Assembly (NCBI GenBank): GCA_963786215.1
Contig: CAWAYK010000008.1
Span: 166,693 to 206,692 of the forward strand
Origin: an uncultured Acidobacteriota bacterium
GTDB taxonomy: Bacteria; Acidobacteriota; Terriglobia; Acidiferrales; UBA7541
DNA: 40,000 nt
Reading direction: 5' to 3'
Of this stretch, positions 12,677 through 29,949 are shown in pieces. Position numbers and translations under genes: made by a program. Position 1 is the first letter of the stretch. The number at the start of each line of letters is the position of its first letter. A model generated the notes under the pieces. That model searched no databases. It worked only from the letters and a program-made list of their open reading frames with translations, and was not told where the DNA came from.

Positions 12677-13935
12677 GATAGGGCCTGATAAACGGGGCGG
12701 TCTCAATGGGTCAGTGCAACACTTGCTTGCAGTTTATCTGCAGGAGTTTGAAATCCCAAAGTTTTTCTGGGACGCTGATTTAATTGCAGCGCCACCTCGT
12801 CGAGTTCTTCTTGAGAATAGACTGACAAGTCTGTTCGTTTAGGGAAGTACTGACGCAACAGACCGTTGGTGTTTTCGTTCGAGCCGCGCTGCCAGGGGCT
12901 TTGCGGATCGCAGAAGTAGACTTTCACTTCCGTGTCCACCGTGAAGCTTTTGTGCTGGGCCATTTCCAGCCCGCGATCCCAGGTCAACGAGCGGCGCAAA
13001 GTTGCGGGCAGCTTGCCAACGTGTTGGCTCAGCGCGGCGACCACGGTCGCCGTATCTTTGCTGGGCACTTTGATCAGCATGACAAATCGCGAATGACGCT
13101 CCACGAGCGTCGCGATGTGACTGTTCTTGGTGCCGCCGATGAGGTCGCCTTCCCAATGGCCGGGGATGGCGCGATCTTCGATCTCTGCGGGCCTTTCTCG
13201 AATGGAAATGGCGTCGACGATTTGACCCTTGTGGTGCCCGCTATCCCGCGCGTGCCGCGAGCGGCGAATTCGCCGCTTGAAGCGAAGATGCTGAATCAGC
13301 TCTTTTTTCAGCACTCCGCGCGCTTGAATGAACAGGCTGCGGTAAATCGTTTCGTGCGACACGCGCATGCTCTCGTCCTCGGGATACTCACTCTTCAGCC
13401 ATCCCGGAAACTTGTTCCGGCGACCAGTCCAGGATGAGTTTACCCGCAACGATCTCTTGCAGCTTCACGTGCAGGGCAAGAAGGCAGCGCTTGGGCCGCA
13501 AGGCCGACTCCCAGGCTTGCTGATCGGCATCCGTTGCTCGATACTGAGGTCGCCCGCCATGGCGGGCGACCTCTCGGCTCACCGTCGACACCGCCCGCTG
13601 CAATCCTCTGGCTATTTCACGAATCGACGAACCGCAAGCAATCCCCGTGAAATGTTTTCCCGCTCCGCCAGCGTAAGTGTCAGCGGTGAGCGTCGCCGCA
13701 CGGCTGGAGCAATCCCGCCATGCTGCGCCAACATAAATTGAATCGACACATGATCTTTGCTGAAGGCTCGCCCAATCTCATGCAACGACTGCCCCGCCTT
13801 CCAGCGACTCCACATCTCGTTCCGCTGCTGCTCAGAAAGCTTGAACCGCCGCTTGAATCTCATCAACACCACCTTATAGAAAAAGATTTATATCAGATGG
13901 TGTTGCATCGACCGGTTGAGCTGGCAGGCCTTATC
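12677..13935 (-). mobile_element. IS30-family insertion sequence, decayed (boundaries approximate)
   Basis: Imperfect terminal IRs: gatagggcctg...ggtcagtgcaac (12677-12720) against the reverse complement of 13902-13935 (gataaggcctg...ggtcgatgcaac). The transposase stop lies inside the IR, as in IS30. Confidence 0.55.
12703..13872 (-). pseudogene. IS30-family transposase, interrupted by two frameshifts
   Basis: Three pieces in frames 0/1/0. First is the HTH part (SLHEIGRAF). Second is IACGSSIREIARGLQRAVSTVSREV...WSPEQVSG. Third is WLKSEYP...VSHETIY plus the DDE core (HWEGDLI, TWDRGLEM, QRGSNENTNGLLRQY). The frame shifts sit at C/G runs 13643-13646 and 13403-13405. Confidence 0.85.
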
Positions 13936-16074: not shown

Positions 16075-16088
16075 TCCGAATCTTTGAC
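16075..16088. repeat. Left copy of 14-bp target-site duplication of the casposon
   Basis: tccgaatctttgac is identical to 29020-29033, in direct orientation, immediately outside the TIRs. Confidence 0.85.
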
Positions 16089-16125
16089 GGGTTAGTGTAT
16101 GGCGACGGCAAAATGCCCCCTCCCC
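16089..16125. repeat. Casposon left terminal inverted repeat
   Basis: gggttagtgtatggcgacggcaaaatgccccctcccc is the exact reverse complement of 28983-29019 (37/37). Confidence 0.9.
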
Positions 16126-16251
16126 TGCTTTCAGCGTCAATACCCTCGCGAGCGGCGATGGCGATACATAGAATTTCAGCACCCCCTACGGTATTATCGA
16201 AGTAGCAAGTCACTGTGTTATACGATATTGAATGTTAGAGGTGTGCACACA

Positions 16252-17562
16252 ATGTCGCCATTTGTGCGAGGACGTATTATCCCGGAGACCGAAAGTGCGG
16301 GTCGAGTAAAGGCGCGTCTTGACGTATTGTTATGGCTCCCTCAAATCTCCCGAGCTGACCTTGCATCGCTGGATGCTATAGAGGTCTTGCGGAGTTATCT
16401 TTCTTCGATTGACCCAATTCGTTGCTCGATCAATTTGTGGATACCTTCGTCGTTTGTTGAGGTTCATAAAGGGTTGGCTTCAATTGGGATTGAGTTCGGG
16501 GTCGTAGGGAAAGTAAATCTTTCGTCCAAGGCAACGGACGTGTTGGGAGTCAACTCCCCGCCCGAACTCCTGGAGATTGCTTCGACCGCGCTCAGCGTGG
16601 ATGCGGATGTTGTTGTTACGTCGAATCCTGATTGGTTTCCGTATGCAATGGAGCTCGAAAAAATTTATACGCTGCTTACAGATTGTCAGACTCTCAAACG
16701 TCAAGCTGAGATTTTTGTGCGGGGGCACGATGTTCCTTGGTCATTTGAGTACATCGTCTGGAGTCAAACGTGGAACGGTTTTTATCAACTAAATGAGCAG
16801 CGTACATTCAAAACGGGAGTGGATTTTTTGGCGAGCGCCCGCACGAGGCAACAGGACACGGACACTCAGGAAGCGGGACGTTCGCTCGTTCACAATTGGT
16901 TGGCAAACTTATGTTTCACAAGAGATAGGCTACTTTTTTATGATATGCAGCAGACCGTTTCGAGGCGCGTTGAGTGGGAACGCCAGGAGTTTCTCTTTGA
17001 GACAGGCTACTACCTCAATTTCTACTATTTGCTGCTTCATGGAGGGGCCGATCATCTGGCGCTTGTTGTAAATGGTGCGCTTAGTCTCGGACTCCCACCC
17101 AAGAACGTAGGTGCAACATACGCTGGATTCTTGGCCGCTTTACTCGCCAAAGCGCCTGAGATTCACGCACACTTTACGGAGCCACGATTTCTGGACTTCT
17201 TAGAAAGGGTATCGGCGTTGCGGCACTATGCTGCGCACCGTGGATCGATCGCCCCAGGTAAGATTTACGAAAAGCTTGACCCTGAGCCTACTAACGCAGA
17301 GCTAGATGCCGAGATTGGTAGGCAAGGTTTGGACTACTTCCTAGCGGCAGTTCCCGATGGACCGGTTCGCGGTGCATTCAGGGCAACGCTCAGGTATAAA
17401 ATGCTGATTTCCATGTCGAAGCTAACTGCCGAGGGCGTAGTTTTTCTAGAAATGAAAGGTAAATGGCATTACATAAGGCCGATGAGCGACATTGAGTGGA
17501 ACTTTGAACGGTTTCACCATTTCATGAGCGCCGTGCTGAAGGACCTAACAGCTAGACTCTAA
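16252..17562 (+). CDS. Hypothetical protein (436 aa) at casposon left end
   Basis: Start placed at ATG 16252 with GAGGTG 8 nt upstream; the track start at 16099 lies inside the TIR. Contains the string ALRHYAAHRG (R-x4-H). No family recognised. Confidence 0.55.
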   Translation: MSPFVRGRIIPETESAGRVKARLDVLLWLPQISRADLASLDAIEVLRSYLSSIDPIRCSINLWIPSSFVEVHKGLASIGIEFGVVGKVNLSSKATDVLGVNSPPELLEIASTALSVDADVVVTSNPDWFPYAMELEKIYTLLTDCQTLKRQAEIFVRGHDVPWSFEYIVWSQTWNGFYQLNEQRTFKTGVDFLASARTRQQDTDTQEAGRSLVHNWLANLCFTRDRLLFYDMQQTVSRRVEWERQEFLFETGYYLNFYYLLLHGGADHLALVVNGALSLGLPPKNVGATYAGFLAALLAKAPEIHAHFTEPRFLDFLERVSALRHYAAHRGSIAPGKIYEKLDPEPTNAELDAEIGRQGLDYFLAAVPDGPVRGAFRATLRYKMLISMSKLTAEGVVFLEMKGKWHYIRPMSDIEWNFERFHHFMSAVLKDLTARL

Positions 17563-17606
17563 TTTATTTTGGATAGCGCCTTTAGGAATGGTGAGACAAG
17601 TCATCA

Positions 17607-20579
17607 CTAGCTCTCCGTTGATTTGTAGCCCTCAAGCCATCGCACAAATTCGTTATACGAGTTGCGCTTCACAGGCAATCCGCGATCTAATTTCCTGACA
17701 AAATTCTTGCGATCAAACCCACTCTCGCGGGCGCATTTATTGATGCCAATGTCCCTGATGTCGCGCTTAACTTCTTCACTCGCGACAGCCTTTTTCGCTC
17801 TCCCGTACTCCGTAGTTCTGAACTCCAAGACGCTGATATCGTCGCCTTCCTCCCATTTGCGATCTGATTCTTTACCCACATAGCGGAACTCACCGGCGAT
17901 AACGTTGGTGCGCTTGAGGATTCCGGCCGTATCGGCCCGGCATTGGCTGCCATCGGGAGCAAGGCTCTTGGCTTCAGGATGCTCTTGGTACTCGATTAAG
18001 AGGCGCGCAAATTGAGAAGGAAAAACAACATTGTGTGGAGGGTTTGCTTCTTTGGTAGGGTCCACCATCCTGTACTTTTTATTTGTATGGATATTCACGC
18101 ATCTGAGGTCAAACCAGCTTTCCTGCTTCTTCAAAAATGGCGTAACCAGCAAGACTTTCTCGTCTTTACGTGTGTAAAAAGCATAGCCAAACGTTGGATC
18201 AATAATTGGCAAGAAAAGAAAATTATACGGACGAGCGATTTTCCATTCTCCGAGCATTTTCAAAACATTGTACGTAGTGATACTGAGCCGCATCATTTGG
18301 GGAAGGTCGAGCCAAGATGGGAATCTACGCTTGAGCTTGAGAGCGCCACGAATAATGTAGTCCCACATTTCGTAAATCCATTGCGGCCACATCTTCGTCC
18401 CAATTCTCCGGGGAATCTTTCGGAGGATATAGAAATCCGATGCCGTGGGCTTTGGGTCAACGATTGTAATATTCTTTGCGCCGATCTTTTCGTAAAGGGC
18501 ATAACGTTTCGCTGCAATGCTGTACCCGGACAGCTGGCGCTGTGGATTCTTCGGCTCAAAATCCACGTAGTTCGCATCCACAAGATTCAGGATCGAACCC
18601 TTAACAATCTTCCGGTTATAAGGATTTAGGGACTTGAACTGATTTGCGACAGCCCGCGCTTGAGCCCACGATAGAATTCTGACACCGCTACTGCCCGGAA
18701 TGCGGAGGGTTCCTCCATTCTTTGAGGCAACAATTGCCAGTGAATCCGTATCGCAGAACAGATAAGTGCCCTTCTTCTGCGTAACACGCGCTTCGGCCAT
18801 TGCAAGAAGCAGCCGACCTGAGGAGGTAATAAGCGAAGCTAAGGGCGGGAAGAACCAAGGTCCCGGATTTTCGATCAAGTCTGAACTCTCGACAACTTTC
18901 TTTTCGCCTGAAAATACATAGTTACTGGCACAGTCTTATTCAGAATTTCTGGATTTAGTTCAACGAAAAATCCATAAATCGAATTCGCAAGAATCTTGAG
19001 CCAATAATAGAGTGCCTCGTCTGATTTGTTCAGTTTGCGTTGCTCAATTATTTTGCGGAACAGATCATCCTTGTACGGATCAACGGTCACCATGCCACGA
19101 AGATTTACCGTCTCCATTCCTGCCTGCTTACCACGCGGCACCATGCGGATAGCCCGAATGATGTGCGGCACTTTACCTGTTCGGATTACAGATGCAATCA
19201 GGTCGGGGCCAGCAAACCACAACGGTGTATCTGACGTCAGATAGTTGTTGCCGATATTTTGAGTGATCCCGTTGTACACAGTGCGGACGGGTAGATATGT
19301 CGCCGTCAGGTTTCACGAGCGCAAAGAATTTGGCCTGCTTCCACATACCTCGTTTGAAACATCGCTGTAGGTTAATGCGCTTCAGGAATTTGCGGACGCT
19401 TTCTGTGTCACGGGTGAACTTCACACTTCGTGCCGTCAGCACATCGAAAAGACCAAGCAGAGCACAACAGCTTGGATATTGACTCGTGAAATCCACTGGT
19501 ACGACCGGAACTGCTGCACATCGCACACGAGTCTCGGAGCGACCTCCGTAATAGCTTTGCATCGCGATACCGAGCACCTTTTCAGGGATGTTGAATTTTA
19601 ATGCTGGCCTCGTGATCCCCATCGTGTCCAAATAAGACTTGGCTATAGATGCAGGAGAGTAGGCGCTGTACGGTTTTAAGTCGATTGGGTGTTTGTCGAA
19701 TTCCCGCTTTAGCGCATTAAGCACGTCTACGGTGCAGCGAGCGTCCTGCCGGGCATATTCGATTTCTTCAGGCGTAATTGTTCCGGTCGGTTCGTGGTCA
19801 AGTTTTTGATGTTCGGTTTTGAGTTCCTCACAAGCCGTCTTGAGCGAAAGCGGCATATTGAAGAGCGCCCATCCCAGCGTGCGAAGATCGAGGAATGGAA
19901 CATTACCATTGTTTTCCCATTCTTCCGGCTTCCACGGCTTTGCCAGTTTGATGAATGCTTTTTTGCTATCTATGGGCGTAATAAGGACCCGAGGACGGTT
20001 GCGGTTTTCGGTTCCGTCTGCATATTCGGACAATATCAGTGACCATTCATCCTTTTCGCTCCTGCTCCATTTCATGGCCAGGCGAGATAGATCGAAAGGC
20101 AGATTCAGGCCACAGATCAAAGCGCCATTGCGCTTAATTGACGGCCAGAACACCCTTTTCATGAATTCGGAGCGGGAATACAGTGGGAATCGCGGCGGAA
20201 AAGACGCTACATCCGAAACAGCGGTACGTACGTAGGCCTGAAGTAGCTTTCGCTCTTTCGGAGGTAAGTTGTCGGCGTAGAAGATACCCTCTTCCGTGAC
20301 CTTGTAAATCCCTTTTATTCGCTCGCAGCAGCGATACACGCCAAAAGTTAGAGATTGATCCACGGTAATGCGCGTTTCAGTGTCGAATACGAGCGCATGC
20401 TTTGGCCACTTGGCACGAAAATAACGCCTCGGCGTTCTCTGCTTTTTCTGCTTTTTGGAAACTAAGTATGCTCGAAGAAAAATGTCATGGCGGAGTCCCG
20501 ACGCAGATTGTTCAGAATTGAATTCACGGTTGAGTTTTCCTCTAACGTTCGTGTCGATACTTGATTTAGTCGAGGCCAT
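17607..20579 (-). pseudogene. polB: Family B DNA polymerase, split into three pieces by two frameshifts
   Basis: Exo I FDTET, Exo II LNLPFDLSRL, Exo III YARQDARCTVD and motif A DFTSQYPS lie in 19173..20579. Motif B KILANSIYG lies in 18875..19279. Motif C LFCDTDS and the KxY motif AAKRYALY lie in 17607..18878. The frame changes near 19291-19303 and somewhere within 18878-18935. Confidence 0.85.
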
Positions 20580-20883
20580 TGTTCTCGTTGAAGATTATTG
20601 CTTCATCAATGTGCCATAACAAGACGTACGCTGCCATCCGCGCACGCCTTGCGCGTTCGGCGAGATTACTGGTGTATTGCATATTCACGCCTGCTCGCGC
20701 AATGGCGATGGTGACTGCCTCGTGATGACGACGGCAGAGCGGGATTGTGAAAAAGGCGGCATGCTTCCGCCCACCAAGATGGTGCTCTTCAATCTCGTTT
20801 ATTGACCCGCAGATTGCGCAGCGCCGGACACGAGGTTGTTTTGTGCCTATGGCGCACGGACGCCTGTGCCGCAATCTACTCAC
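20566..20883 (-). CDS. HNH-like zinc-finger nuclease candidate
   Basis: CAICGS...IEEHHLGGRKH...LCRRHHEAV pattern. The GTG start overlaps the upstream stop (GTGA), and the 3' end overlaps the polB start by 14 nt. Confidence 0.55.
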   Translation of the reverse strand: MSRLRHRRPCAIGTKQPRVRRCAICGSINEIEEHHLGGRKHAAFFTIPLCRRHHEAVTIAIARAGVNMQYTSNLAERARRARMAAYVLLWHIDEAIIFNENNGLD

Positions 20884-21509
20884 GCCGCCCCACCCGAGAG
20901 CGAGCGGTAGAGGGAATAAGGAAGTAATTCGTCTTGAGCTAGCTTTTTAAGAGTTTGCCGGTCGGTTACAAGTTCAACCCCGGCGATCTTCTTTCCGCGC
21001 CATGGATCAAGCGCCTTAAGGTCCCCGCCTAAAAATCTGTTGACGGCAGCTTTGTATCTGGCAACCTCAGTCGCTTCTTTTGACCCATGCGCCTTTATTT
21101 CGACTGAACCGTTCGGACTCGGAATTTGTAAGTACCGGACAAATCGGTCACTCTTGGTCGGACGGATTCGTCCGCCTGGGCGCTTTTGGATGAGCGCTGT
21201 CCCAACATATTTCTTAATCGTCCGTATAGTAACGCTGTTGGCTCGCGCGGCCTCCGAAACGGAAGCTCCGTGCCGCATATCGTTCAGAGCATGGAGGGAT
21301 CGCTCACGAGCAGAAGAGCTGCGCTCAATGGTTTGTGAGCCACGAACAATGTGAGCTTTGTTCGATTTGGAGTGTCGCTTGCGCATAGGTATTGAAAGGC
21401 GTTTGCGAGAAACGCTTAAGCGTGAGCCCTTACGCAGTGTAGCTTTTCGTTTGCGCTGGCGCGATTTGGGTCTATTATTCTTCTTCATCTGCTTGCCTAC
21501 GCCGCTCAC
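20880..21509 (-). CDS. Basic HTH DNA-binding protein
   Basis: Lys/Arg-rich N-terminus, then an HTH-like segment GASVSEAARANSVTIRTIKKYVG. First gene of the minus-strand operon HTH-HNH-polB. Confidence 0.55.
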   Translation of the reverse strand: MSGVGKQMKKNNRPKSRQRKRKATLRKGSRLSVSRKRLSIPMRKRHSKSNKAHIVRGSQTIERSSSARERSLHALNDMRHGASVSEAARANSVTIRTIKKYVGTALIQKRPGGRIRPTKSDRFVRYLQIPSPNGSVEIKAHGSKEATEVARYKAAVNRFLGGDLKALDPWRGKKIAGVELVTDRQTLKKLAQDELLPYSLYRSLSGGAA

Positions 21510-21572
21510 ATTACTTCAATTCATTTGCACGGCTAACGTCAGTGAGCGTGAGTCGCAACGCCAGTTCCCCGG

Positions 21573-21617
21573 TTCATGGGTAATGGGCACAAAGCACTGA
21601 GCAATTCATGGGTAATG
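21573..21617. promoter_or_regulatory. Pair of 13-bp direct repeats in the divergent intergenic region (candidate operator)
   Basis: ttcatgggtaatg occurs at 21573-21585 and 21605-21617, spaced 32 bp start to start, between the divergently transcribed 20880..21509 and 21637..22950. Confidence 0.3.
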
Positions 21618-21636
21618 AGGCGGATTCAGGGGTGAA

Positions 21637-22950
21637 TTGGTGCGAACAAAAAATCATCCGGCTAAAGCACGGAGGCCGAGGAACTCTACTCGCCAAGCCG
21701 ATACGAGTGGAACTCTCGACAATCCGTTTTCAATATTCAACGAAGGTCCGGGTAATCCTAGCCTTCGAAAAGACTATCTTCTTCAGCGGCGAGACGACTT
21801 CATTTGCTTACTTGAGCCCGTCTGGTATGAATTTGGTTGGGAGTTAAAATGCGCACGAACATCCGAACAAGTTCGCCAAGCGTTTCAAAAGCTGGCTGAA
21901 AACGTGAATTCTAGCCGTCTTATGCCCATGTTAAGAGCCACGGCTGAGCCCGCGACCAAGGCGACGATTGAGAGTACGCGTCGGATGTACGCCCTTTGCG
22001 TTGAGAAGTCGAGATCGTTATCGACACGGCACCAAGCACAACTCCAGATTTTTGAGGAATGCCAGAGATCGAACCATGTTTTGAGCAATGCGTTTAAGGA
22101 AGCACTCGAAAGAGACTTAATGGGGCGTAAAGAGAATATTCGAGCAATTAAAATTGCCATCTCTACCCAGAGAGGCAATATTCGGAAAGCACAGTTGCAA
22201 AGGAACGCGAAACCATCAGAGTCTGAACCGAAGGTTCCTGCGCTAGAAAGTGCGTTGAACAGCCTTCAGCGCGATCTTGCCGCAGACGAGGATGTCTGTC
22301 GTAATCTTGAGAAGCGAATACGGTCAATCACCAAAGAATCCCGCAGGGTCATAGCAGAAGAAACGGTACGTCAAAAGGGAAAGCTAGATTCTCTGGAGCA
22401 AGAGTTGAGGAAGGCAGATTTGGAGTGCCGCAAATTCGAAACAACGCTCCTGGATCAAGAAGCCTTTTTCTTTAGAAGTCAGCTTTTGGACTTCATAAAG
22501 AAGGTAGATTACGAGTTCACTCCGAGAAATGTGGCGAATGCCCTCGCAGGCTTGCCCTATATCACGAGCCGCCGATCCGCAGAGCTTTGTTCCACGATGA
22601 AAAGTAAAATTGCACTCTCTGGAAGTTACGAGTTGCTGATGTTCATTTCATCGGTTTGGAAACGATATGACACGAGTGCAAATCTTACGGTGACCGAGTG
22701 GTTCAAACTCAAGATCATAGAACTGCCGAGGTACAGGATAATTAATAAGAAAAAGATGGACAATTATTTCCGAACCAATCTGGCGGGAAAGTGGTTTTTT
22801 CTACGGCGGGCATTGGTGATCTTTCAAAGATCGAAGCTACCCCCAGGTTTCGTGCCCTACGCAATTACGCGGGAGTTTCTAAGGCAGTCAGTTAACCCGG
22901 AATCACCAGCCGATTCAATCTTGGCGGCAACCAACAAGATCACGGACTAA
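21637..22950 (+). CDS. Hypothetical protein, basic N-terminus and long charged helical region
   Basis: 437-aa ORF with a TTG/GTG start. The central segment is rich in E/K/R/L/Q heptad-like sequence. No family recognised. Confidence 0.5.
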   Translation: MVRTKNHPAKARRPRNSTRQADTSGTLDNPFSIFNEGPGNPSLRKDYLLQRRDDFICLLEPVWYEFGWELKCARTSEQVRQAFQKLAENVNSSRLMPMLRATAEPATKATIESTRRMYALCVEKSRSLSTRHQAQLQIFEECQRSNHVLSNAFKEALERDLMGRKENIRAIKIAISTQRGNIRKAQLQRNAKPSESEPKVPALESALNSLQRDLAADEDVCRNLEKRIRSITKESRRVIAEETVRQKGKLDSLEQELRKADLECRKFETTLLDQEAFFFRSQLLDFIKKVDYEFTPRNVANALAGLPYITSRRSAELCSTMKSKIALSGSYELLMFISSVWKRYDTSANLTVTEWFKLKIIELPRYRIINKKKMDNYFRTNLAGKWFFLRRALVIFQRSKLPPGFVPYAITREFLRQSVNPESPADSILAATNKITD

Positions 22951-23108
22951 TCTCCAAGCGTGCGAGCATATCATCAACTAGGCGAAAGACAGGCTATTTC
23001 ATTCTGTTGTCTTTGGCAGGTAAATGTTAGAATAGCAATGACTTAAGCGGGCTGCCCGCCTGTTTCAGCAGACGAAGCAGCCCTAACCACCATGGAGGTG
23101 AAGCTCCA

Positions 23109-24632
23109 ATGGCAGATTCGCTCACCCTACCGTATTTCCATTATGTCCGCAATTCTGGCGTTCTCGTTTTAAGTGGATATGGTGTTCGCGTGCAAGTCAA
23201 CGCTGGTCACTTGGTCGCTCATGACGGGATAGCGGACGAGCGGAGGAACATTCGCCTGCCTCGCGTGGCCAACGGGCTGCGAAGACTAGTGATAATTGGG
23301 AGCGATGGGTTCATCACTCTTGAGGCTCTCCGTTGGATTTCTGATGTGGGGGCTGCCTTCGTTATGCTCGAAAAAGACGGCTCTGTGGTCGTCACGACTG
23401 GCCCGGTATATCCGTCCGATGCACGGCTAAGGCGTTCTCAATCTCTTTCAAGTACAAATGGAATGGCGTTGGAGATTTCCAAGAATTTGATTCGGCAAAA
23501 AATGATTGCTCAAGAACAAATTGCTAAAGAAAAACTGAATGCTTGCTCAGTGGCACATTTAATTGCTGATATTCGTGCAGCCGTTAATTCTGCAAGAAAC
23601 ATTGATGAGCTTCGCCGTTTTGAATCACAGGCTGCATATTCCTACTGGTCTGCATGGCGCAACGTATCGATAATCTTCCCGAAAAAGGATATTCCGCGCG
23701 TGCCAGACCACTGGCAGCGCTTTGGAGCGAGAGTCTCCCCGTTAACGGGATCACCTCGTCTTGCCGCGAATCCCATGAACGCAATGCTCAACTATTTGTA
23801 CGCAGTTCTTGAATCAGAAGCTCGCCTCGCCGCTGCCGCACTCGGTCTTGATCCGGGCATCGGGGTGATGCATGTTGACACACCTTCTCGCGACAGTTTG
23901 GCCTGTGATTTGATGGAGCCACTTCGTCCTCAAGTTGACGCATATGTCCTAGACTGGATTAGTCGCGAACCAATCCGCCGCGAATGGTTCATTGAGCAAA
24001 GAGATGGAAATTGTCGGTTAATCGCTTCCTTTGCCGCTCGGCTCACGGAGACTGCACCTTCGTGGGCTCGCGCCCTAGCGCCAATCGCCGAAATGGTTGC
24101 GCGTACTTTTTTGTCTACCGTCAAGAAGCAAATTCGTTCGGGTCTACCGCCAACACGGCTAACACAAAACCAGCGACGTGAAGCGACAGGATTCTCGCCG
24201 GAGATTCCAGCGAAAGCGTCAGTCAAGCCGACCCGTATTTGTCGTAATTGTGGCGTAGTCCTCTATCGTGGCAAAACCCACTGTGCCGCTTGTGCCGTTC
24301 CGGTTTCTAAGGAGAGATTTGCTGAGGTGGCACGACAAGGGCGTGCAGCTTCGCATAGTCATGATGCAGAGATCAGCCGTGCGGAGACGCAACGTAGACA
24401 TAAAGCAGCTGTTCGTGCCTGGCTACCCTCTGAACAGCCTGAATGGCTGAATGAGGACGCTTACCGGACAAAGATTCAACCCGTCCTTTCAGAAATGACG
24501 GTTCCAGCGATATCTTCCGCGCTTGGCATCTCGCAACCTTATGCCACCGACATTCGCGCTGGGCGGCGCCGACCGCATCCAAGACATTGGCGGTCGCTGG
24601 CGCAATTAGTTGGAGTTTCGCCGGATGAGTGA
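23109..24632 (+). CDS. cas1: Cas1-like integrase (casposase) with C-terminal zinc ribbon and HTH
   Basis: RBS GGAGGTG. Cas1 blocks are present: LVIIGSDGFITLEALRWISDVGAAFVMLEKDG, ESQAAYSYW and NAMLNYLYAVLESEARLAAAALGLDPGIGVMHVDTPSRDSLACDLMEPLRPQVD (an E...H...D/E triad pattern). The C-terminus has CRNCG...CAAC and an HTH-like segment ISSALGISQPYATDIRAG. Confidence 0.85.
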   Translation: MADSLTLPYFHYVRNSGVLVLSGYGVRVQVNAGHLVAHDGIADERRNIRLPRVANGLRRLVIIGSDGFITLEALRWISDVGAAFVMLEKDGSVVVTTGPVYPSDARLRRSQSLSSTNGMALEISKNLIRQKMIAQEQIAKEKLNACSVAHLIADIRAAVNSARNIDELRRFESQAAYSYWSAWRNVSIIFPKKDIPRVPDHWQRFGARVSPLTGSPRLAANPMNAMLNYLYAVLESEARLAAAALGLDPGIGVMHVDTPSRDSLACDLMEPLRPQVDAYVLDWISREPIRREWFIEQRDGNCRLIASFAARLTETAPSWARALAPIAEMVARTFLSTVKKQIRSGLPPTRLTQNQRREATGFSPEIPAKASVKPTRICRNCGVVLYRGKTHCAACAVPVSKERFAEVARQGRAASHSHDAEISRAETQRRHKAAVRAWLPSEQPEWLNEDAYRTKIQPVLSEMTVPAISSALGISQPYATDIRAGRRRPHPRHWRSLAQLVGVSPDE

Positions 24633-24779
24633 ATCAGTTGAGCGGAGTTGCCGCTGTGTGCTAGGCGTTGCTGGATCAGGTGCGCTCGACTAATTTCCGA
24701 AAGGACCATCTAATGTGGGGAATCGGGCGAAGTCTTGCCCCCGTTCCGCAAAAGCTGGATATCGGAGTCCGATTGTTGT

Positions 24780-25712
24780 ATGCTTGCGGCGATGAATATC
24801 CGCGCCTACAGGTCGGTAACTCCCGCAATTCGTTCCATCAAGAGCGGCACGCCGACAGTGTTGTTCACTGGCGACTGCGTAGAACTTATCAGACGTGTGC
24901 CCGACGGTTCGATTGATCTCACAATTACGTCTCCGCCCTACTGCATGGGCAAGGAGTATGAGACATCAAATTCTATTGAGGATTTCATCGCTGCTCACAA
25001 GGTTATATTGCCGGAGATAGTCAGAATCACTCGCGATGGAGGCAGCATTTGCTGGCAGGTTGGCTACCACGTCGCAAAACAATGTGTATATCCGCTGGAC
25101 TATCCCGTGTTTGCGATTCTCGCTGGGATTAAAGATATTGTCCTGCGGAATCGAATTGTCTGGGCATTCGGACACGGCTTTCATGGAACGTCTCGCTTCA
25201 GCGGGAGACACGAAACAATACTTTGGTTTACTAAGGGTCTAGATTACCACTTTGATCTTGATGCAGTCCGTGTGGCGCAAAAATATCCGGGAAAGCGGCA
25301 CTATAAGGGGCCTCACAAGGGAGAATTTAGCGGTAATCCCAAGGGTAAGAATCCGGGGGACGTGTGGGATATCCCAAACGTAAAGGGCAATCACATCGAA
25401 AAGCTCGACCATCCATGCCAATTTCCTGTTGGGATCGCGGAACGTTTAGTGCGTGCATTGTGCCCCAAAGACGGCATTGTTTTTGATCCCTATATGGGAT
25501 CTTCCTCAACAGGAGTCGCGGCGATTATTAACCGTCGCCGTTTTCTTGGAGCCGAACTCAACGAGAAGTACGAAGCCCTTGCATACGCAAGACTGCTGAA
25601 GGCGCATAACGGAACTGTGAGATTCAGACCTGCCGAGCGGCCCCTGTATCTTCCCAGTTCGGGAGACACGGTGGCGCGCCGCCCGGATCACTTTGTGGAG
25701 GTTTTTCAGTGA
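24780..25712 (+). CDS. Beta-class DNA methyltransferase (N4-C/N6-A family, SPPY motif IV)
   Basis: Motif IV, DLTITSPPY, precedes motif I, FDPYMGSSSTGVAA (beta-class order). Start placed at ATG 24780; the track TTG at 24735 is also possible. Confidence 0.85.
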   Translation: MLAAMNIRAYRSVTPAIRSIKSGTPTVLFTGDCVELIRRVPDGSIDLTITSPPYCMGKEYETSNSIEDFIAAHKVILPEIVRITRDGGSICWQVGYHVAKQCVYPLDYPVFAILAGIKDIVLRNRIVWAFGHGFHGTSRFSGRHETILWFTKGLDYHFDLDAVRVAQKYPGKRHYKGPHKGEFSGNPKGKNPGDVWDIPNVKGNHIEKLDHPCQFPVGIAERLVRALCPKDGIVFDPYMGSSSTGVAAIINRRRFLGAELNEKYEALAYARLLKAHNGTVRFRPAERPLYLPSSGDTVARRPDHFVEVFQ

Positions 25713-26791
25713 GCGCAAAGAGGAAGGCGCAAACTCAGAAAAGCGTCAAGAAGCATACAGGCCGCGTCGGGCATCCGCTCACATTCGCTGCTCTGGAAGT
25801 AGTCCAAATGAATACAAAGCTGTACGTATTTAAGGCAAAAGCATCCACTCTGTTTGGCTCGCTATCAATCAACCGCCGAATTGAAGATAAAGATGTGGGT
25901 TATCAACGCACCCTATCGCCATCGCGTGTTCAGGCAATCACTCGCTACATCACACAGAAAAGACCCATTCCAGGCGCAGTAATTGTCTGCTTAGATAAGG
26001 CGACGTTCGATAGCAGGAAAAGCGAAATTACGATTCCCGCCGGAACTGACGTAGGGTGGGTCATCGATGGACAACATCGCTTGGCTGGAGCTGAAGAGGC
26101 CGCTCGCCTTGGGACTGATGTTGAGCTTCCCGTCGTTGCATTTCTCGATCTCTCCAAGGAGAAACAGATTGAGCAATTTGTGACCATTAATAGGGAAGCA
26201 AAGAACGTGCCCACCTCTCTTTACCTGGATCTGCTGCGTGAGCTACCGGCAAGTAAGAATCCTGCGGAAGTAGCAAAAGAACGCGCGGCAGACATAGCCA
26301 CACAGCTTCGCCGAGATGAGCACTCTCCGTTTTACGAAAAAATCGTCGTGGCAACCAGTCCAAAGGCCGGACAACTTTCCCTTACTAATTTCGTGAGAAA
26401 GATTTCACCATTAGTCACGCCGGAAAAAGGAATGCTGAGTGAATACACAGAATGGGAGCAACAATCGATAATTTCAAACTACTATAAGGGGCTGCACCAA
26501 GTGTTCCAGGGCGAGTTTGAAGCGAAGGAGAGCATATTCTTCAAGACTATCGGCTTTGGCGCTTTGTGGAATGTATTCCCAGTGTTTTTCAATCTAGCGT
26601 TGAAGAATCAGCAGGGGTTCGAAGTTAAAGATGTGATAGCTATTTTCAAGCGTATAGAAAATGTTGACTTTTCGGGGTGGAGGCAGATGGGTTCCGGAAA
26701 CCAAGCCGAGCAGATCGTTGGAGATGATCTGAAAACGTCGCTGCGGATCGCCTTCAAGGAAGACAGCAAACCTGGAACACTTAGAGTGTGA
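25709..26791 (+). CDS. DGQHR domain protein (DndB-like, ParB/Srx superfamily)
   Basis: VIDGQHRLAG plus the upstream GYQRTLSPSRVQAITRYI block. The GTG start overlaps the methyltransferase stop (GTGA). Confidence 0.8.
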   Translation: MSAKRKAQTQKSVKKHTGRVGHPLTFAALEVVQMNTKLYVFKAKASTLFGSLSINRRIEDKDVGYQRTLSPSRVQAITRYITQKRPIPGAVIVCLDKATFDSRKSEITIPAGTDVGWVIDGQHRLAGAEEAARLGTDVELPVVAFLDLSKEKQIEQFVTINREAKNVPTSLYLDLLRELPASKNPAEVAKERAADIATQLRRDEHSPFYEKIVVATSPKAGQLSLTNFVRKISPLVTPEKGMLSEYTEWEQQSIISNYYKGLHQVFQGEFEAKESIFFKTIGFGALWNVFPVFFNLALKNQQGFEVKDVIAIFKRIENVDFSGWRQMGSGNQAEQIVGDDLKTSLRIAFKEDSKPGTLRV

Positions 26792-26799
26792 ATATCTAG

Positions 26800-27717
26800 A
26801 TGTCGCTAAGACCTAAATTGCAGAATTTCCGTGAACGCAACTGGAAAGAAGTGCGGGACTCCTGGCTTGGACACATTCCAAATTTCCAAAGCGCTGGCGC
26901 TCGACCTGATCCAGGTCTTGAGCGGCTTCAGCCGTTGTTGGACCTCGTTTTGCCACGAGATAATGGTCGGTTTTCTGATATCGATGGCCTAAGGGAGATG
27001 ATGCTATGGGAAGCGGTATTTCTATTTCACAAGTGTTCCCATACAAACTTAGCGGCACAGCGTCTTGGAAGCCAAGGAATGCAAAGCTGGTGTCTGTTTA
27101 ATGCTTATCATTCGGCGTACTTAGGCGCACGGGGGATAATGGCTTTGCTTGGAGTAGCATTGCCAGAACTTAAAGGCCACCAAGTTGCGATTGATATTTA
27201 TCCCGAGCCCATGAAAAAGAGGAAGACCATCCGACCTCTCGGTTCGTCGCAATTCCAAGAATTTGTAATTGTTCCATTGGCACCTTTGGATCAACGTGAT
27301 CTTTGGGAGGCATTTCAGCGAGTAATAAATATGTCCAATGCCACCTGTTGGGACGTGGGTATCCGCCAAGAACTTCTTGATCTCGCCCATCAGAAGATCA
27401 CGCCCCCCAGGAATCGGTTCCTCTATAGGTCGAATCATTGGCCATTGACCGACCTTATTTCAGATGTGCAACCTTCAGATTTGACAGGCTTCGTCGGAAC
27501 GGAGCTTAACGCGGAGGATACAGGATTCCTGTTGAGATTGAGCTTTTCCGTGTACCGGTTGTTTCAGCAATTGATGAGCGACCTCGCGAGCTACTCCGCA
27601 GTCATAAAAACGCAGCTAGACGCCTCTAGGTGTCAGGTTGAATCTGAAGCACTCGACCTCGTTTCCTATAGAAATTTCGTATCCCAGATGAATGCCCGAA
27701 CTGAAGGTCTAAGGTGA
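26800..27717 (+). CDS. Hypothetical protein (305 aa), third gene of the cargo operon
   Basis: The ATG lies 8 nt after the DGQHR stop. No family recognised by eye. Confidence 0.55.
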   Translation: MSLRPKLQNFRERNWKEVRDSWLGHIPNFQSAGARPDPGLERLQPLLDLVLPRDNGRFSDIDGLREMMLWEAVFLFHKCSHTNLAAQRLGSQGMQSWCLFNAYHSAYLGARGIMALLGVALPELKGHQVAIDIYPEPMKKRKTIRPLGSSQFQEFVIVPLAPLDQRDLWEAFQRVINMSNATCWDVGIRQELLDLAHQKITPPRNRFLYRSNHWPLTDLISDVQPSDLTGFVGTELNAEDTGFLLRLSFSVYRLFQQLMSDLASYSAVIKTQLDASRCQVESEALDLVSYRNFVSQMNARTEGLR

Positions 27718-28056
27718 AGAGGAATCAAGGCGATAGAGAGTGCCTGAATGAAGCCTACGCCAGCGCCGATTGTAACTGGTGAAACTCTACACATATGCTT
27801 ACCAGTTCGCGCGCATCCTTTATGGGCCAAATATCGCGTCTTCAGCTCCCAAAGTTCGCTTGTAACGATTCCGGTATGCGGATGGCGCGCACACATGTCG
27901 CAAAAGGATGATTAGCATTACCTTCGGGACAAGAAGCACATTTCCCTTTCTACCATTTCAGCGAGGATATAGCAGGCACCTTAAATACAATGCCGGCTGC
28001 CCTCTCACCAGGGAGCCCGCTTGTGAGACCAGAGTCGCTCGGCGCATAATTGTGGG

Positions 28057-28881
28057 ATGAGCTGTTTACCACGATCTGGCGGCTGCGAGAAGCCACTCAC
28101 TGACGCATTCGCGAATCATCTAAACGAAGCGGAAGGCGCTCGCTTTGTCCATCGGACCTGTTTGGATATTGCCGATAGACAGAATCCTCAACCTGAGGCT
28201 TTGTACGTGGATTCAGGGAATAACATTGAACTCGTCATCGAGAGAAAGTCGATTTCTTCACCAGTTGATTTTGTTCACAGACACAGCAATGACCACTTCG
28301 TTTCCGAACTTTTTGAGGCAAAGCTGAAGGACCTTCCGTTCGATGACCTCTATGAAATAGGCCTTCCGATGCTGATAAGCGGAACTCAACCACAATTGCG
28401 CGCATTTGTATTGGCAGCAGTTCAAAGTATTCGATCGCATTGGCCGATCGCAGAAGGAATGGTTCTCAAGTCGCGTCCCGGCAAAAGGTGGTGGTCGTAC
28501 AAAAGAGTTCCCGAGTGGAACAGATTGGACGGTGCTCCGAGCAAGGGTTTGCAATTCACATGGTCAGAGCCGCCCACAAGTCAGCCGGATTGTATCGACG
28601 CCGCAAATCCTCCACAACATATCGCTTTTGCTTTGCAGAACATCTATTCAAGCTGTGTGAAGAAATTTGCTACTTATCCCAATGCAAGGCGAATCCTTGT
28701 GCTTGATCCGTACGGAGAATTGAGATACCAGAACGCAGACTGGTGGCGTGATCTGTTCTCCGTCCTACCACCTCCGACCGAGATCGAAGAGATATGGTCA
28801 GGTATGTTCGATTGGATTACAGAGAAATCGGAGGGATGGACTTTTGAACGTCTACACTGTCAGAATGACGTGATTGCGTAG
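28057..28881 (+). CDS. Hypothetical protein (274 aa) with D-x9-ExK string
   Basis: Intact ORF near the right TIR. YVDSGNNIELVIERKS resembles a PD-(D/E)XK core, but this is only a motif-level hint. Confidence 0.45.
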   Translation: MSCLPRSGGCEKPLTDAFANHLNEAEGARFVHRTCLDIADRQNPQPEALYVDSGNNIELVIERKSISSPVDFVHRHSNDHFVSELFEAKLKDLPFDDLYEIGLPMLISGTQPQLRAFVLAAVQSIRSHWPIAEGMVLKSRPGKRWWSYKRVPEWNRLDGAPSKGLQFTWSEPPTSQPDCIDAANPPQHIAFALQNIYSSCVKKFATYPNARRILVLDPYGELRYQNADWWRDLFSVLPPPTEIEEIWSGMFDWITEKSEGWTFERLHCQNDVIA

Positions 28882-28982
28882 GGCAAAGATCCCGTCCCCA
28901 CGCTTCTCCTTCAGCCCCTCCGCCCCGCACGCACGCTATCCCGCCCATCGCCGCTCTTCATTGGCAACCAGCGCTTAAGTGG

Positions 28983-29019
28983 GGGGAGGGGGCATTTTGC
29001 CGTCGCCATACACTAACCC
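28983..29019. repeat. Casposon right terminal inverted repeat
   Basis: ggggagggggcattttgccgtcgccatacactaaccc is the exact reverse complement of 16089-16125. Confidence 0.9.
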
Positions 29020-29033
29020 TCCGAATCTTTGAC
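29020..29033. repeat. Right copy of 14-bp target-site duplication
   Basis: tccgaatctttgac is identical to 16075-16088. Confidence 0.85.
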
Positions 29034-29064
29034 TACCGCTTCTGCTGCGCTTACACTTGCGAGG

Positions 29065-29859
29065 ATGGGTTCACGCTCTCGGTATCCGGGCACTTTCGGT
29101 TCTCGCGTCAGTTGGGGCGGGATGCTTACTCCTGCCATCCGCAACATCGTTATCGCCTGCACCGCTGTTTTTTTTCTGCAGTCCATTACCAAGCTGGTTT
29201 TACCGCCGGAATATACGGCGATGTTCAATCATTATTTCGGGCTGGTTCCCTGGTACGTCACGCGACGCTTTTTTGTTTGGCAGCTCTTCACATATCTTTT
29301 CCTGCACGCGACCATCTGGCACCTGCTCTTCAACATGCTTTTCCTTTATTTCTTCGGGATGGATTTGGAAAAGACGTGGGGCAAGCGGCGGTTCTATGAA
29401 TATTATTTTCTGACCGGAATTGGCGCCGGCTTTATCAACGTCTTGGTGAAATCGATCCTCGATCCTCATGGGACTGGATTTTCATTCACGATTCCTACGA
29501 TCGGCGCATCCGGCGCTATTTACGGAGTGCTGATTGCCGCGGGAATTATGTTTCCTGATCGTCAGGTATGGCTCATACCATTTCCAATCATGATACCGAT
29601 GAAACTTCTGGTGGCGGGATCGATTGCCATTGAATTCTTTTTATCTCTGGAAGTGGGCGGCGACAATGTCAGCCACATCACGCACCTGGGCGGAGCGCTG
29701 GTGGGCTATTTGTACCTGAGGCGCGGATTGTTTCTGTATCGTTTCCGCAATGATTATCTGGATTGGAAACGCCGCCGCGCGCGGCGCAAATTCGAAGTTT
29801 ACATGCGCGAGCACAAAGATGAGCCACCGCGCGATTCCGATGATCGCTGGGTGAATTAG
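29065..29859 (+). CDS. Rhomboid family intramembrane serine protease
   Basis: GASGAIYGVL (GxSG) and HLGGALVGYLY catalytic blocks in a multi-TM protein. The start is uncertain: ATG 29065 is preferred, with 29029 TTG and 29122 ATG as alternatives. Confidence 0.85.
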   Translation: MGSRSRYPGTFGSRVSWGGMLTPAIRNIVIACTAVFFLQSITKLVLPPEYTAMFNHYFGLVPWYVTRRFFVWQLFTYLFLHATIWHLLFNMLFLYFFGMDLEKTWGKRRFYEYYFLTGIGAGFINVLVKSILDPHGTGFSFTIPTIGASGAIYGVLIAAGIMFPDRQVWLIPFPIMIPMKLLVAGSIAIEFFLSLEVGGDNVSHITHLGGALVGYLYLRRGLFLYRFRNDYLDWKRRRARRKFEVYMREHKDEPPRDSDDRWVN

Positions 29860-29872
29860 GTTTAAGTAGCGC

Positions 29873-29928
29873 GGGCTTCAGCCTGCGGGGTTTAGGCCTT
29901 GCAGGGCCTAAAATCCACAGGCTGAAGC
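29873..29928. terminator. Long nested hairpin between convergent rhomboid and pyk genes (bidirectional terminator candidate)
   Basis: ggcttcagcctgcgg (29873-29887) pairs with ccacaggctgaagcc (29914-29928) at 14/15. An inner palindrome tttaggcc...ggcctaaa is nested inside. Confidence 0.6.
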
Positions 29929-29949
29929 CTATGCCACAAAAAACAACTC

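Follow-up and report, generated by a model that had tools for sequence, protein, structure and literature searches.

A conserved cassette of a DNA methyltransferase, a DGQHR protein, and a HEPN-like protein carried by a casposon of an uncultured Acidobacteriota bacterium: a candidate defense or addiction module

The subject of this report is a three-gene cassette found in a 40,000-nucleotide (nt) stretch of DNA from an uncultured Acidobacteriota bacterium of the UBA7541 lineage (assembly GCA_963786215.1, contig CAWAYK010000008.1, positions 166,693 to 206,692 of the forward strand). We refer to this whole stretch as the window and number its positions from the first letter. The cassette lies within a casposon and encodes, in order, a predicted beta-class DNA methyltransferase (M), a DGQHR-domain protein (D), and a HEPN-like helical protein (H), all of which are listed in Table 1. 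As casposon cargo, this M-D-H triad is previously undescribed, and we regard it as a well-delimited and testable candidate system, not as a new principle. At a rough probability of 0.5, we read it as a restriction-modification-like defense or addiction module. A preliminary description of the same DNA, made from its letters and the translations of its open reading frames (ORFs), had proposed a four-gene module that also included a protein of 274 amino acids (aa) encoded further downstream. The gene layout that it gave was confirmed: all four ORFs are located on the plus strand at the coordinates of Table 1, the stop codon of M overlaps the start codon of D as GTGA at 25709-25712, 8 nt separate the TGA of D from the ATG of H at 26800, and the 274-aa ORF follows on the same strand after a gap that we measured as 339 nt. 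The four-gene module itself stood only in part, as the M, D, and H genes do form a conserved and tight unit, whereas the 274-aa gene falls outside of it and does not co-occur with it in the other loci compared.

The evidence for the triad comes from its linkage across loci L005-L016, L018-L022, and L028-L036, which were fetched with H-family queries and required to contain flanking DNA. With near-identical contig pairs counted once, these triad loci amount to ~20 independent loci, derived from Acidobacteriota, Blastocatellia, Bryobacteraceae, Binatia, and Eremiobacterota, from Candidatus Aquilonibacter metagenome-assembled genomes, from metagenomes, and from three IMG/VR contigs. M, D, and H were all present in every such locus except L012, which is without M, and the identity of H to the window protein ranged from 70% down to 24%. 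D is located directly upstream of H, 2-16 nt apart, in all of the loci with flanking DNA, while the 4-nt overlap between M and D is conserved in L005-L008. Four arrangements were found, namely M-D-H, D-H-M, D-H with a convergent methylase (453 aa and only 27% identical), and M followed by a BglII-like enzyme and then D-H. D-H is the invariant core pair of the cassette, and an SPPY methylase is linked to it in nearly every locus, in any gene order. Because this linkage outlasts both rearrangement and replacement of the methylase, it argues for a functional tie to DNA methylation, as does the occasional attachment of D-H to a complete Type II system. The latter arrangement occurs in L030 (1749-2372) and L031 (1521-2144), in which a 207-aa endonuclease of the BglII family (PF09195) is encoded between the methylase and D-H; judged by family assignment, both loci are complete Type II systems with D-H appended. 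In L012 (1548-4288), the D-H genes are downstream of an SNF2-like helicase (638 aa), and an adjoining 275-aa ORF has a D...EVK pattern resembling DUF3883-type restriction-endonuclease domains. The cassette also recurs on mobile DNA, being found in the window casposon, beside IS1595 or DDE transposases, and on IMG/VR contigs, one of which encodes a D5-type primase. Neither the D-H DNA nor three H-family proteins had relatives in annotated plasmid and phage collections. Co-occurrence, which had been suggested as a check of the module, fails for its four-gene version and holds for a three-gene version.

M matched both PF01555 N6_N4_Mtase (E = 1.2e-48) and the PADLOC model MTase_II (E = 1.8e-65), and its orthologues in the triad loci are 45-77% identical. 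It has the motif order of the beta class, as had been noticed earlier, with the SPPY of motif IV (aa 66-69, nt 24930-24941) preceding the FDPYMGSSSTG of motif I (aa 250-260). Its true start is more likely the ATG at 24792 (or 24780) than the TTG at 24735, because most orthologues align only from residue ~8-21 and because in L009 a stop codon precedes the methionine that matches M20. SPPY at motif IV is the usual form in N4-cytosine enzymes, and M.BglII is an enzyme that makes N4-methylcytosine (m4C). SPPY is kept in nearly all methylases of the triad loci, including the 27%-identical one, and the orthologue that adjoins the BglII-like endonuclease in L030 and L031 is 50% identical to M. From such sequence features, we consider m4C about twice as likely a product of M as N6-methyladenine (m6A). 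It should be noted that the methylases of L007 (7944-8882) and L008/L013 (7931-8869), which are located next to IS1595 transposases, have SPNY in place of SPPY in motif IV, and their motif I reads FDPHMG. The SPNY methylase of L007/L008 may be inactive or may be a tolerated variant.

D is a clear member of the DGQHR family, with a TIGR03187 score of 146.8 bits against a cutoff of 58.85 (E = 1e-42), and it also matched the DndB family PF14072 (E = 9e-16). The DGQHR signature reported for it was found at aa 120-124 (nt 26066-26080) and is unchanged in all orthologues. The scores obtained with the models of the two characterized relatives were below their equivalog cutoffs, at 102 bits against 300 for DpdB (NF041060) and 17.4 bits against 328 for DndB (TIGR03233). 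A sequence search found no solved relative for this subfamily.

H belongs to a family that was previously unannotated. The window protein matched no model in Pfam, NCBIfam, PADLOC, or PHROGs, and a sequence search identified no solved structure for it, while the search for homologues yielded > 234 matches and the family comprises 408 representatives at 50% identity. Its HEPN-like character emerges from its relatives, as the HEPN family PF05168 was weakly matched by 32 of 57 close members and by 51 of 86 diverse ones (best E = 2.2e-6), with profile positions 3 to ~60 always falling on two long H helices at residues ~80-140. The AlphaFold2 model of H has a predicted local distance difference test score (pLDDT) of 89 and a predicted template modeling score of 0.90, and its best Foldseek matches in the Protein Data Bank (PDB), which are weak, comprise among others two HEPN domains, those of Csm6 and sacsin. 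Conservation in the family is highest in the element Q-R-N-x-[LI]-H-Y, which is located after the third helix, where HEPN motifs sit; within it, R204 and Y209 are invariant and N205 is nearly so. Across scans of 143 family members, no Pfam family besides PF05168 recurred, including the MAE_28990 family, and no PADLOC match was recurrent. We conclude that H is predicted to be HEPN-like in fold. The idea that H might be related to the C-terminal half of D, and that the two might form a HEPN-HEPN heterodimer, was rejected given an hhalign probability of 0.07%.

In the defense or addiction reading, M would methylate a short DNA motif, with N4-cytosine being a likelier target than N6-adenine, and would in this way mark the DNA of both the cell and the casposon. 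D would bind DNA in a nucleoside triphosphate (NTP)-dependent manner and read its modification state, as do other ParB-fold NTPases of modification systems, the analogues being DndB, DpdB, and the DUF262 domains of GmrSD, SspE, and BrxU. H would be the output partner of D and could serve as an RNase, exert some other toxic activity, or act as an adaptor for nicking by D. Two events would set off the D-H pair, the entry of unmethylated DNA and the loss of the cassette, and the pair would then protect the host against invaders and stabilize the casposon as an addiction module. By analogy with the ParB-fold systems named above, D is likely to be the sensor, i.e. a DNA- and NTP-binding reader, and H its effector partner. 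A distinction of self from non-self by methylation, as the preliminary description had proposed, is plausible in this reading. A function in defense or addiction fits the location of the cassette on a casposon, beside insertion sequence (IS) elements, and on a mobile element with a D5-type primase. It is also possible, if tentative, that M-D-H represents a widespread and unnamed class of methylation-linked immunity or addiction systems, in which D scans for sites left unmethylated by its m4C partner and signals via a non-canonical HEPN-fold H, with an output other than that of an Rx4-6H RNase, and which stabilizes casposons as well as other mobile elements. The output is proposed to differ from the classical Rx4-6H RNase reaction because the whole clade of the window protein has lost the histidine.

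Several observations weigh against the defense or addiction reading, and many of these concern H. Most of the PF05168 matches in its family fall short of the gathering score and do not extend beyond the first half of the profile, and the motif region is poorly modeled by AlphaFold2, with pLDDT < 50 at residues 205-208. Furthermore, the spacing from R to H in the family motif is 3, versus 4-6 in the canonical Rx4-6H, and in the clade of the window protein Leu or Ile replaces the motif His altogether (RNRFLY). Because of this spacing of R-N-x-x-H and the absence of the His in the window clade, it is doubtful that the window H is a canonical HEPN RNase, as judged from its sequence. Neither D nor H has a confidently assigned nuclease active site. 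As for the methylase, the nearest solved relatives of M are the N6-adenine enzymes M.BceJIV (E = 1.8e-33), an orphan enzyme that recognizes GTWWAC, and M.RsrI. L012 has a D-H pair without an adjacent PF01555 methylase, and both L007 and L008 combine an SPNY methylase with D and H genes that look intact, which is awkward if an inactive methylase makes D-H lethal. The DGQHR proteins that have been characterized serve modification and are not restriction sensors, DndB being a regulator and DpdB an ATPase cofactor (PMC12839542, PMC10853773), and we found no experimental studies of any cassette member in the literature.

Some of the same observations would be expected if the cassette were solely a modification module with an epigenetic or anti-restriction role. 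D would then serve M as a cofactor, much as DpdB is an NTP-driven loader for DpdA, or as a regulator, much as DndB is an autorepressor; H would be an accessory, and the module would protect the DNA of the element from host restriction or tune expression while restricting nothing. In agreement with this, the M and D genes share 4 nt in the window and in close relatives, both characterized DGQHR proteins work with modification machinery (PMC12839542, PMC10853773, PMC4507180), and phages commonly encode a ParB fold fused to an N6_N4 methylase, a combination thought to counter host defenses (bioRxiv 10.1101/2025.10.10.680097). In addition, M.BceJIV, the nearest methylase with a solved structure, is an orphan enzyme with a regulatory role, and the window H is without the His of the family motif. 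However, the invariant pair is D-H and not M-D, as the methylase can be downstream, convergent, of another subfamily, or absent. H is conserved as strictly as D and diverges fastest, like the effectors or sensors of conflict systems, and an accessory protein component of ~660 aa is much for a regulator. Together with the zero matches in phage or plasmid collections, these points make a role restricted to modification unlikely in our estimation. The attachment of D-H to the complete Type II systems of L030 and L031 (methylase plus BglII-like endonuclease), as well as its L012 neighbors, an SNF2-like helicase and an ORF resembling restriction endonucleases, would be accounted for if D-H were a second-line suicide module on restriction-modification systems, comparable to PrrC or RloC. 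Such a module would be blind to methylation, would be held off by the methylase or by a methylase-restriction complex, and would be freed once that complex came under attack by a phage anti-restriction factor. A similar logic was proposed in a 2013 survey for HEPN domains linked to restriction-modification (PMC3710099). In the majority of loci, however, and in the window too, there is no restriction enzyme that D-H could guard, the contact that is presumed between M and D-H is hypothetical, and the RNase competence of H is doubtful, and so we find this explanation rather improbable.

The explanation with which the analysis began, namely that the 274-aa protein completes a four-gene system as the nuclease effector to a methylase-DGQHR module, has in its favor that the gene is downstream on the same strand within the same casposon and that its product has conserved D...ExK residues together with a matching alpha-beta-beta-beta-alpha-beta core. 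Co-occurrence speaks otherwise. None of four fetched loci with 274-aa homologues, which represent three distinct contexts, contained M, D, or H, and no triad locus elsewhere contained a 274-aa homologue. Likewise, the 339-nt gap differs from the 0-16 nt spacing found within the triad. As a candidate, the four-gene system was rejected on these co-occurrence data, and an effector role of the 274-aa protein in the triad is accordingly very improbable.

The 274-aa protein is of interest in its own right as an independent passenger of the casposon. Its family yielded 77 homologues, and in an alignment of 46 sequences E47, E62, and K64 were invariant, while D52 was conserved in at least 90%. This agrees with the D-x9-ExK motif VDSGNNIELVIERK that had been recognized at aa 51-64 of the ORF. 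In its AlphaFold2 model (pLDDT 91.7), an alpha-beta-beta-beta-alpha-beta core is present. The active-site-type residues are located on the beta2-beta3 hairpin, as is characteristic of the D...(D/E)xK residues of PD-(D/E)xK enzymes, with D52 ending the strand 48-52 and both E62 and K64 in the strand 57-68, these strands being flanked by helices 12-26 and 72-89. Foldseek gave no significant match to the model in either the PDB or BFVD, and there was no sequence match in Pfam or the PDB. PD-(D/E)xK families, for example VRR-NUC, RecB, Holliday-junction resolvase, and HamA-C, were nevertheless over-represented among the weak BFVD matches, where they account for ~11 of the top 50. Taken together, the model and the conserved residues suggest that the protein is probably a stand-alone nuclease of the PD-(D/E)xK type. 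The neighbors of its homologues vary, and include toxin-antitoxin and restriction-modification genes, an ArdC-like gene, a DNA ligase, and an AAA_15/DUF4276 pair. The public gene call for this protein is only 224 aa in length (P0002). The N-terminal 50 residues (28057-28206) are conserved in the family, including C3, C10, and C35, which indicates that the longer 274-aa ORF is the real one. C200 is conserved too, and the four conserved cysteines may bind metal or an iron-sulfur cluster.

A comparison with known systems places the triad near several of them. The nearest published description is a single row in Table 1 of Anantharaman et al. 2013, which lists MAE_28990-type HEPN operons (PMC3710099); a full-text search found the name of the MAE_28990 family in no other paper. 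Like the cassette, these operons each combine a HEPN-superfamily protein, a ParB-fold protein, and a DNA methylase, and both are sequence predictions only. Unlike in those operons, the motif of H is R-N-x-x-H/L-Y and not Rx4-6H, and the H family matches only PF05168, weakly, the comparison being one of gene content and family models. More generally, frequent fusion of ParB-like DGQHR/DUF262 domains with HEPN and nuclease domains was noted by Makarova et al. 2013 for modification-linked systems. D has in common with DndB and DpdB a DGQHR ParB/Srx domain and a position beside a gene for a DNA-modifying enzyme, but it scores far under their equivalog cutoffs and the modifying enzyme here is a simple S-adenosylmethionine-dependent methylase. 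No Dnd-family match was found among the scanned window ORFs, with DndACDE all missing, and no gene resembling tRNA-guanine transglycosylase (DpdA) is listed beside D in any triad locus. GmrSD, SspE, and BrxU, which contain a DUF262 ParB-like NTPase and a DUF1524/HNH nuclease, similarly couple a ParB-fold NTPase to an effector in a modification-reading system, and they are the template for the pairing of a sensor with an effector that is proposed here. These are, however, single polypeptides with DGQQR and an HNH-type nuclease that attack modified DNA, whereas M-D-H has a separate HEPN-like partner and a linked, protective methylase. PrrC/EcoprrI and RloC, the anticodon nucleases that guard Type I systems, likewise place a HEPN-type toxic effector inside a restriction-modification locus. 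In contrast to these, H has no ABC-ATPase domain and is instead partnered with a ParB-fold protein, and restriction enzymes are missing from most triad loci. The beta-class SPPY methylase is shared with Type II restriction-modification systems, BglII being an example, and it is paired with a BglII-family endonuclease in L030/L031, but the window has no recognizable Type II endonuclease linked to its methylase, and neither D nor H matched any restriction-enzyme family. That no named defense system could be assigned, as had been stated before, was upheld for the triad in PADLOC: among the named anti-phage systems of PADLOC-DB v2, only generic matches to MTase_II and to DpdB/DndB domains were obtained, with none for H or the 274-aa protein.

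The casposon that carries these genes is 12,931 bp in length (16089-29019). It encodes a Cas1-family integrase and a family-B DNA polymerase (PolB), and has both terminal inverted repeats and a target-site duplication (Table 1), the first 37 nt being identical between the two 48-nt repeats. Since the repeats and the duplication enclose the M, D, H, and 274-aa genes, the assignment of these as casposon cargo was borne out. The casposase matched PF01867 (E = 1.5e-39) and HTH_31 (E = 6.7e-5), and its zinc ribbon CxxC...CxxC spans aa 378-395. The direct matches of the PolB ORFs are weak (PF03175, E = 2e-4; phrog_1907, E = 6e-4 and 6e-3), but all three are collinear with a single intact 1052-aa ORF (31-41% identity, E down to 7e-79) of L024, a related casposon locus from a metagenome whose cas1 is 62% identical to that of the window. 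From this comparison, the window PolB gene is probably frameshifted, and either the casposon is decaying and non-autonomous or the frameshifts are assembly errors. The three ORFs overlap or abut and are inverted relative to cas1, while the intact PolB gene of L024 (1123-4281) is directly upstream of cas1 on the same strand. The genes that follow cas1 in L024 are unrelated, with none of the M, D, H, or 274-aa genes of the window among them, so that the region downstream of cas1 is variable cargo and the triad is exchangeable. The element resembles the bacterial family 3 casposons in its bacterial host, its Cas1 with a zinc-binding domain and helix-turn-helix (HTH), its PolB, its terminal inverted repeats, and its 14-bp target duplication (Krupovic et al. 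2014, PMC4046053). It differs from them in that its PolB is in three ORFs and inverted relative to cas1 and that no HNH endonuclease was found among the casposon ORFs using Pfam, PHROGs, or an HNH-like pattern, although the element may encode a divergent HNH. Methylases, restriction enzymes, and HEPN genes are all known as casposon cargo. The first casposon ORF (16099-17562, plus strand, 487 aa) starts within the left terminal repeat and is without a family match. Near its C-terminus it carries ALRHYAAHRG, an Rx4H pattern resembling the HEPN catalytic motif, and so it may be a second HEPN-type cargo gene.

Table 1. Positions of the cassette, the neighboring nuclease candidate, and the casposon frame in the window.
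Feature	Coordinates	Strand	Basis
M: beta-class DNA methyltransferase (predicted)	24735-25712	+	PF01555, SPPY motif IV, FDPYMGSSSTG motif I
D: DGQHR-domain protein, ParB/Srx fold, DndB/DpdB-like	25709-26791	+	TIGR03187, PF14072
H: 305-aa HEPN-like helical protein, previously unannotated family	26800-27717	+	PF05168 matches in relatives, AlphaFold2
274-aa PD-(D/E)xK-type candidate nuclease, independent cargo	28057-28881	+	Conserved residues, AlphaFold2 core
Casposase: Cas1 domain, zinc ribbon, and C-terminal HTH	23109-24632	+	PF01867, HTH_31
Family-B DNA polymerase PolB, three ORFs (468, 134, and 423 aa)	17607-20579	-	Weak collinear PF03175 and phrog_1907 matches
Left target-site duplication copy, 14 bp, TCCGAATCTTTGAC	16075-16088	.	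Identical to 29020-29033
Left casposon terminal inverted repeat	16089-16136	+	48 nt, 90% complementary to 28972-29019
Right casposon terminal inverted repeat	28972-29019	-	48 nt
Right target-site duplication copy, TCCGAATCTTTGAC	29020-29033	.	Perfect 14-bp match to left copy

Outside of the casposon, the right target duplication overlaps the TTG start (29029) of a listed rhomboid-family ORF (29029-29859), which places the insertion immediately at the 5' end of that gene. The casposon may therefore supply or disrupt the promoter of the rhomboid-family gene. Between this gene and a convergent pyruvate-kinase-like gene is an 82-nt near-perfect hairpin (29861-29942), whose two 41-nt arms are 76% complementary with no loop and which probably serves as a terminator in both directions or represents a repeat element. 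In the host flank ~2.6 kb from the left end of the casposon, an ORF on the minus strand (12703-13449) encodes an rve integrase core (E = 2.4e-12). It probably belongs to an IS element or is what remains of an integrase, and its proximity to the casposon suggests that the neighborhood is a hotspot for mobile DNA. Several 6-bp palindromes are strongly under-represented in the window, with observed versus expected counts of 1 versus ~10 for GAGCTC, 3 versus 13 for ACGCGT, 0 versus ~7 for AGATCT, and 4 versus 14 for ATGCAT; GAGCTC and GGGCCC are depleted in related Acidobacteriota loci too. This suggests past or present restriction pressure on the genome of the window. AGATCT was considered as the target site of M given the BglII-like enzyme of L030, but the idea was discarded, as GAGCTC, ACGCGT, and ATGCAT are equally depleted in the window and other triad loci are without the depletion. 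A cluster look-up returned no names for the window proteins, no Rfam families were found in the window, and its promoter-like and terminator-like sites were no commoner than in shuffled sequence.

The M-D-H cassette is a compact three-gene candidate for a defense or addiction system that is unnamed in current family libraries, and its H family comprises ~400 clusters at 50% identity from soil and sediment bacteria. At ~3 kb, it is small enough for direct synthesis and testing. If the defense or addiction reading is true, it would give DGQHR/ParB-fold proteins a function beyond those of DndB and DpdB and would supply them with a HEPN-fold partner whose motif is atypical. Moreover, a bacterial casposon with exact ends that carries such cargo bears on how self-synthesizing transposons may persist in their hosts.

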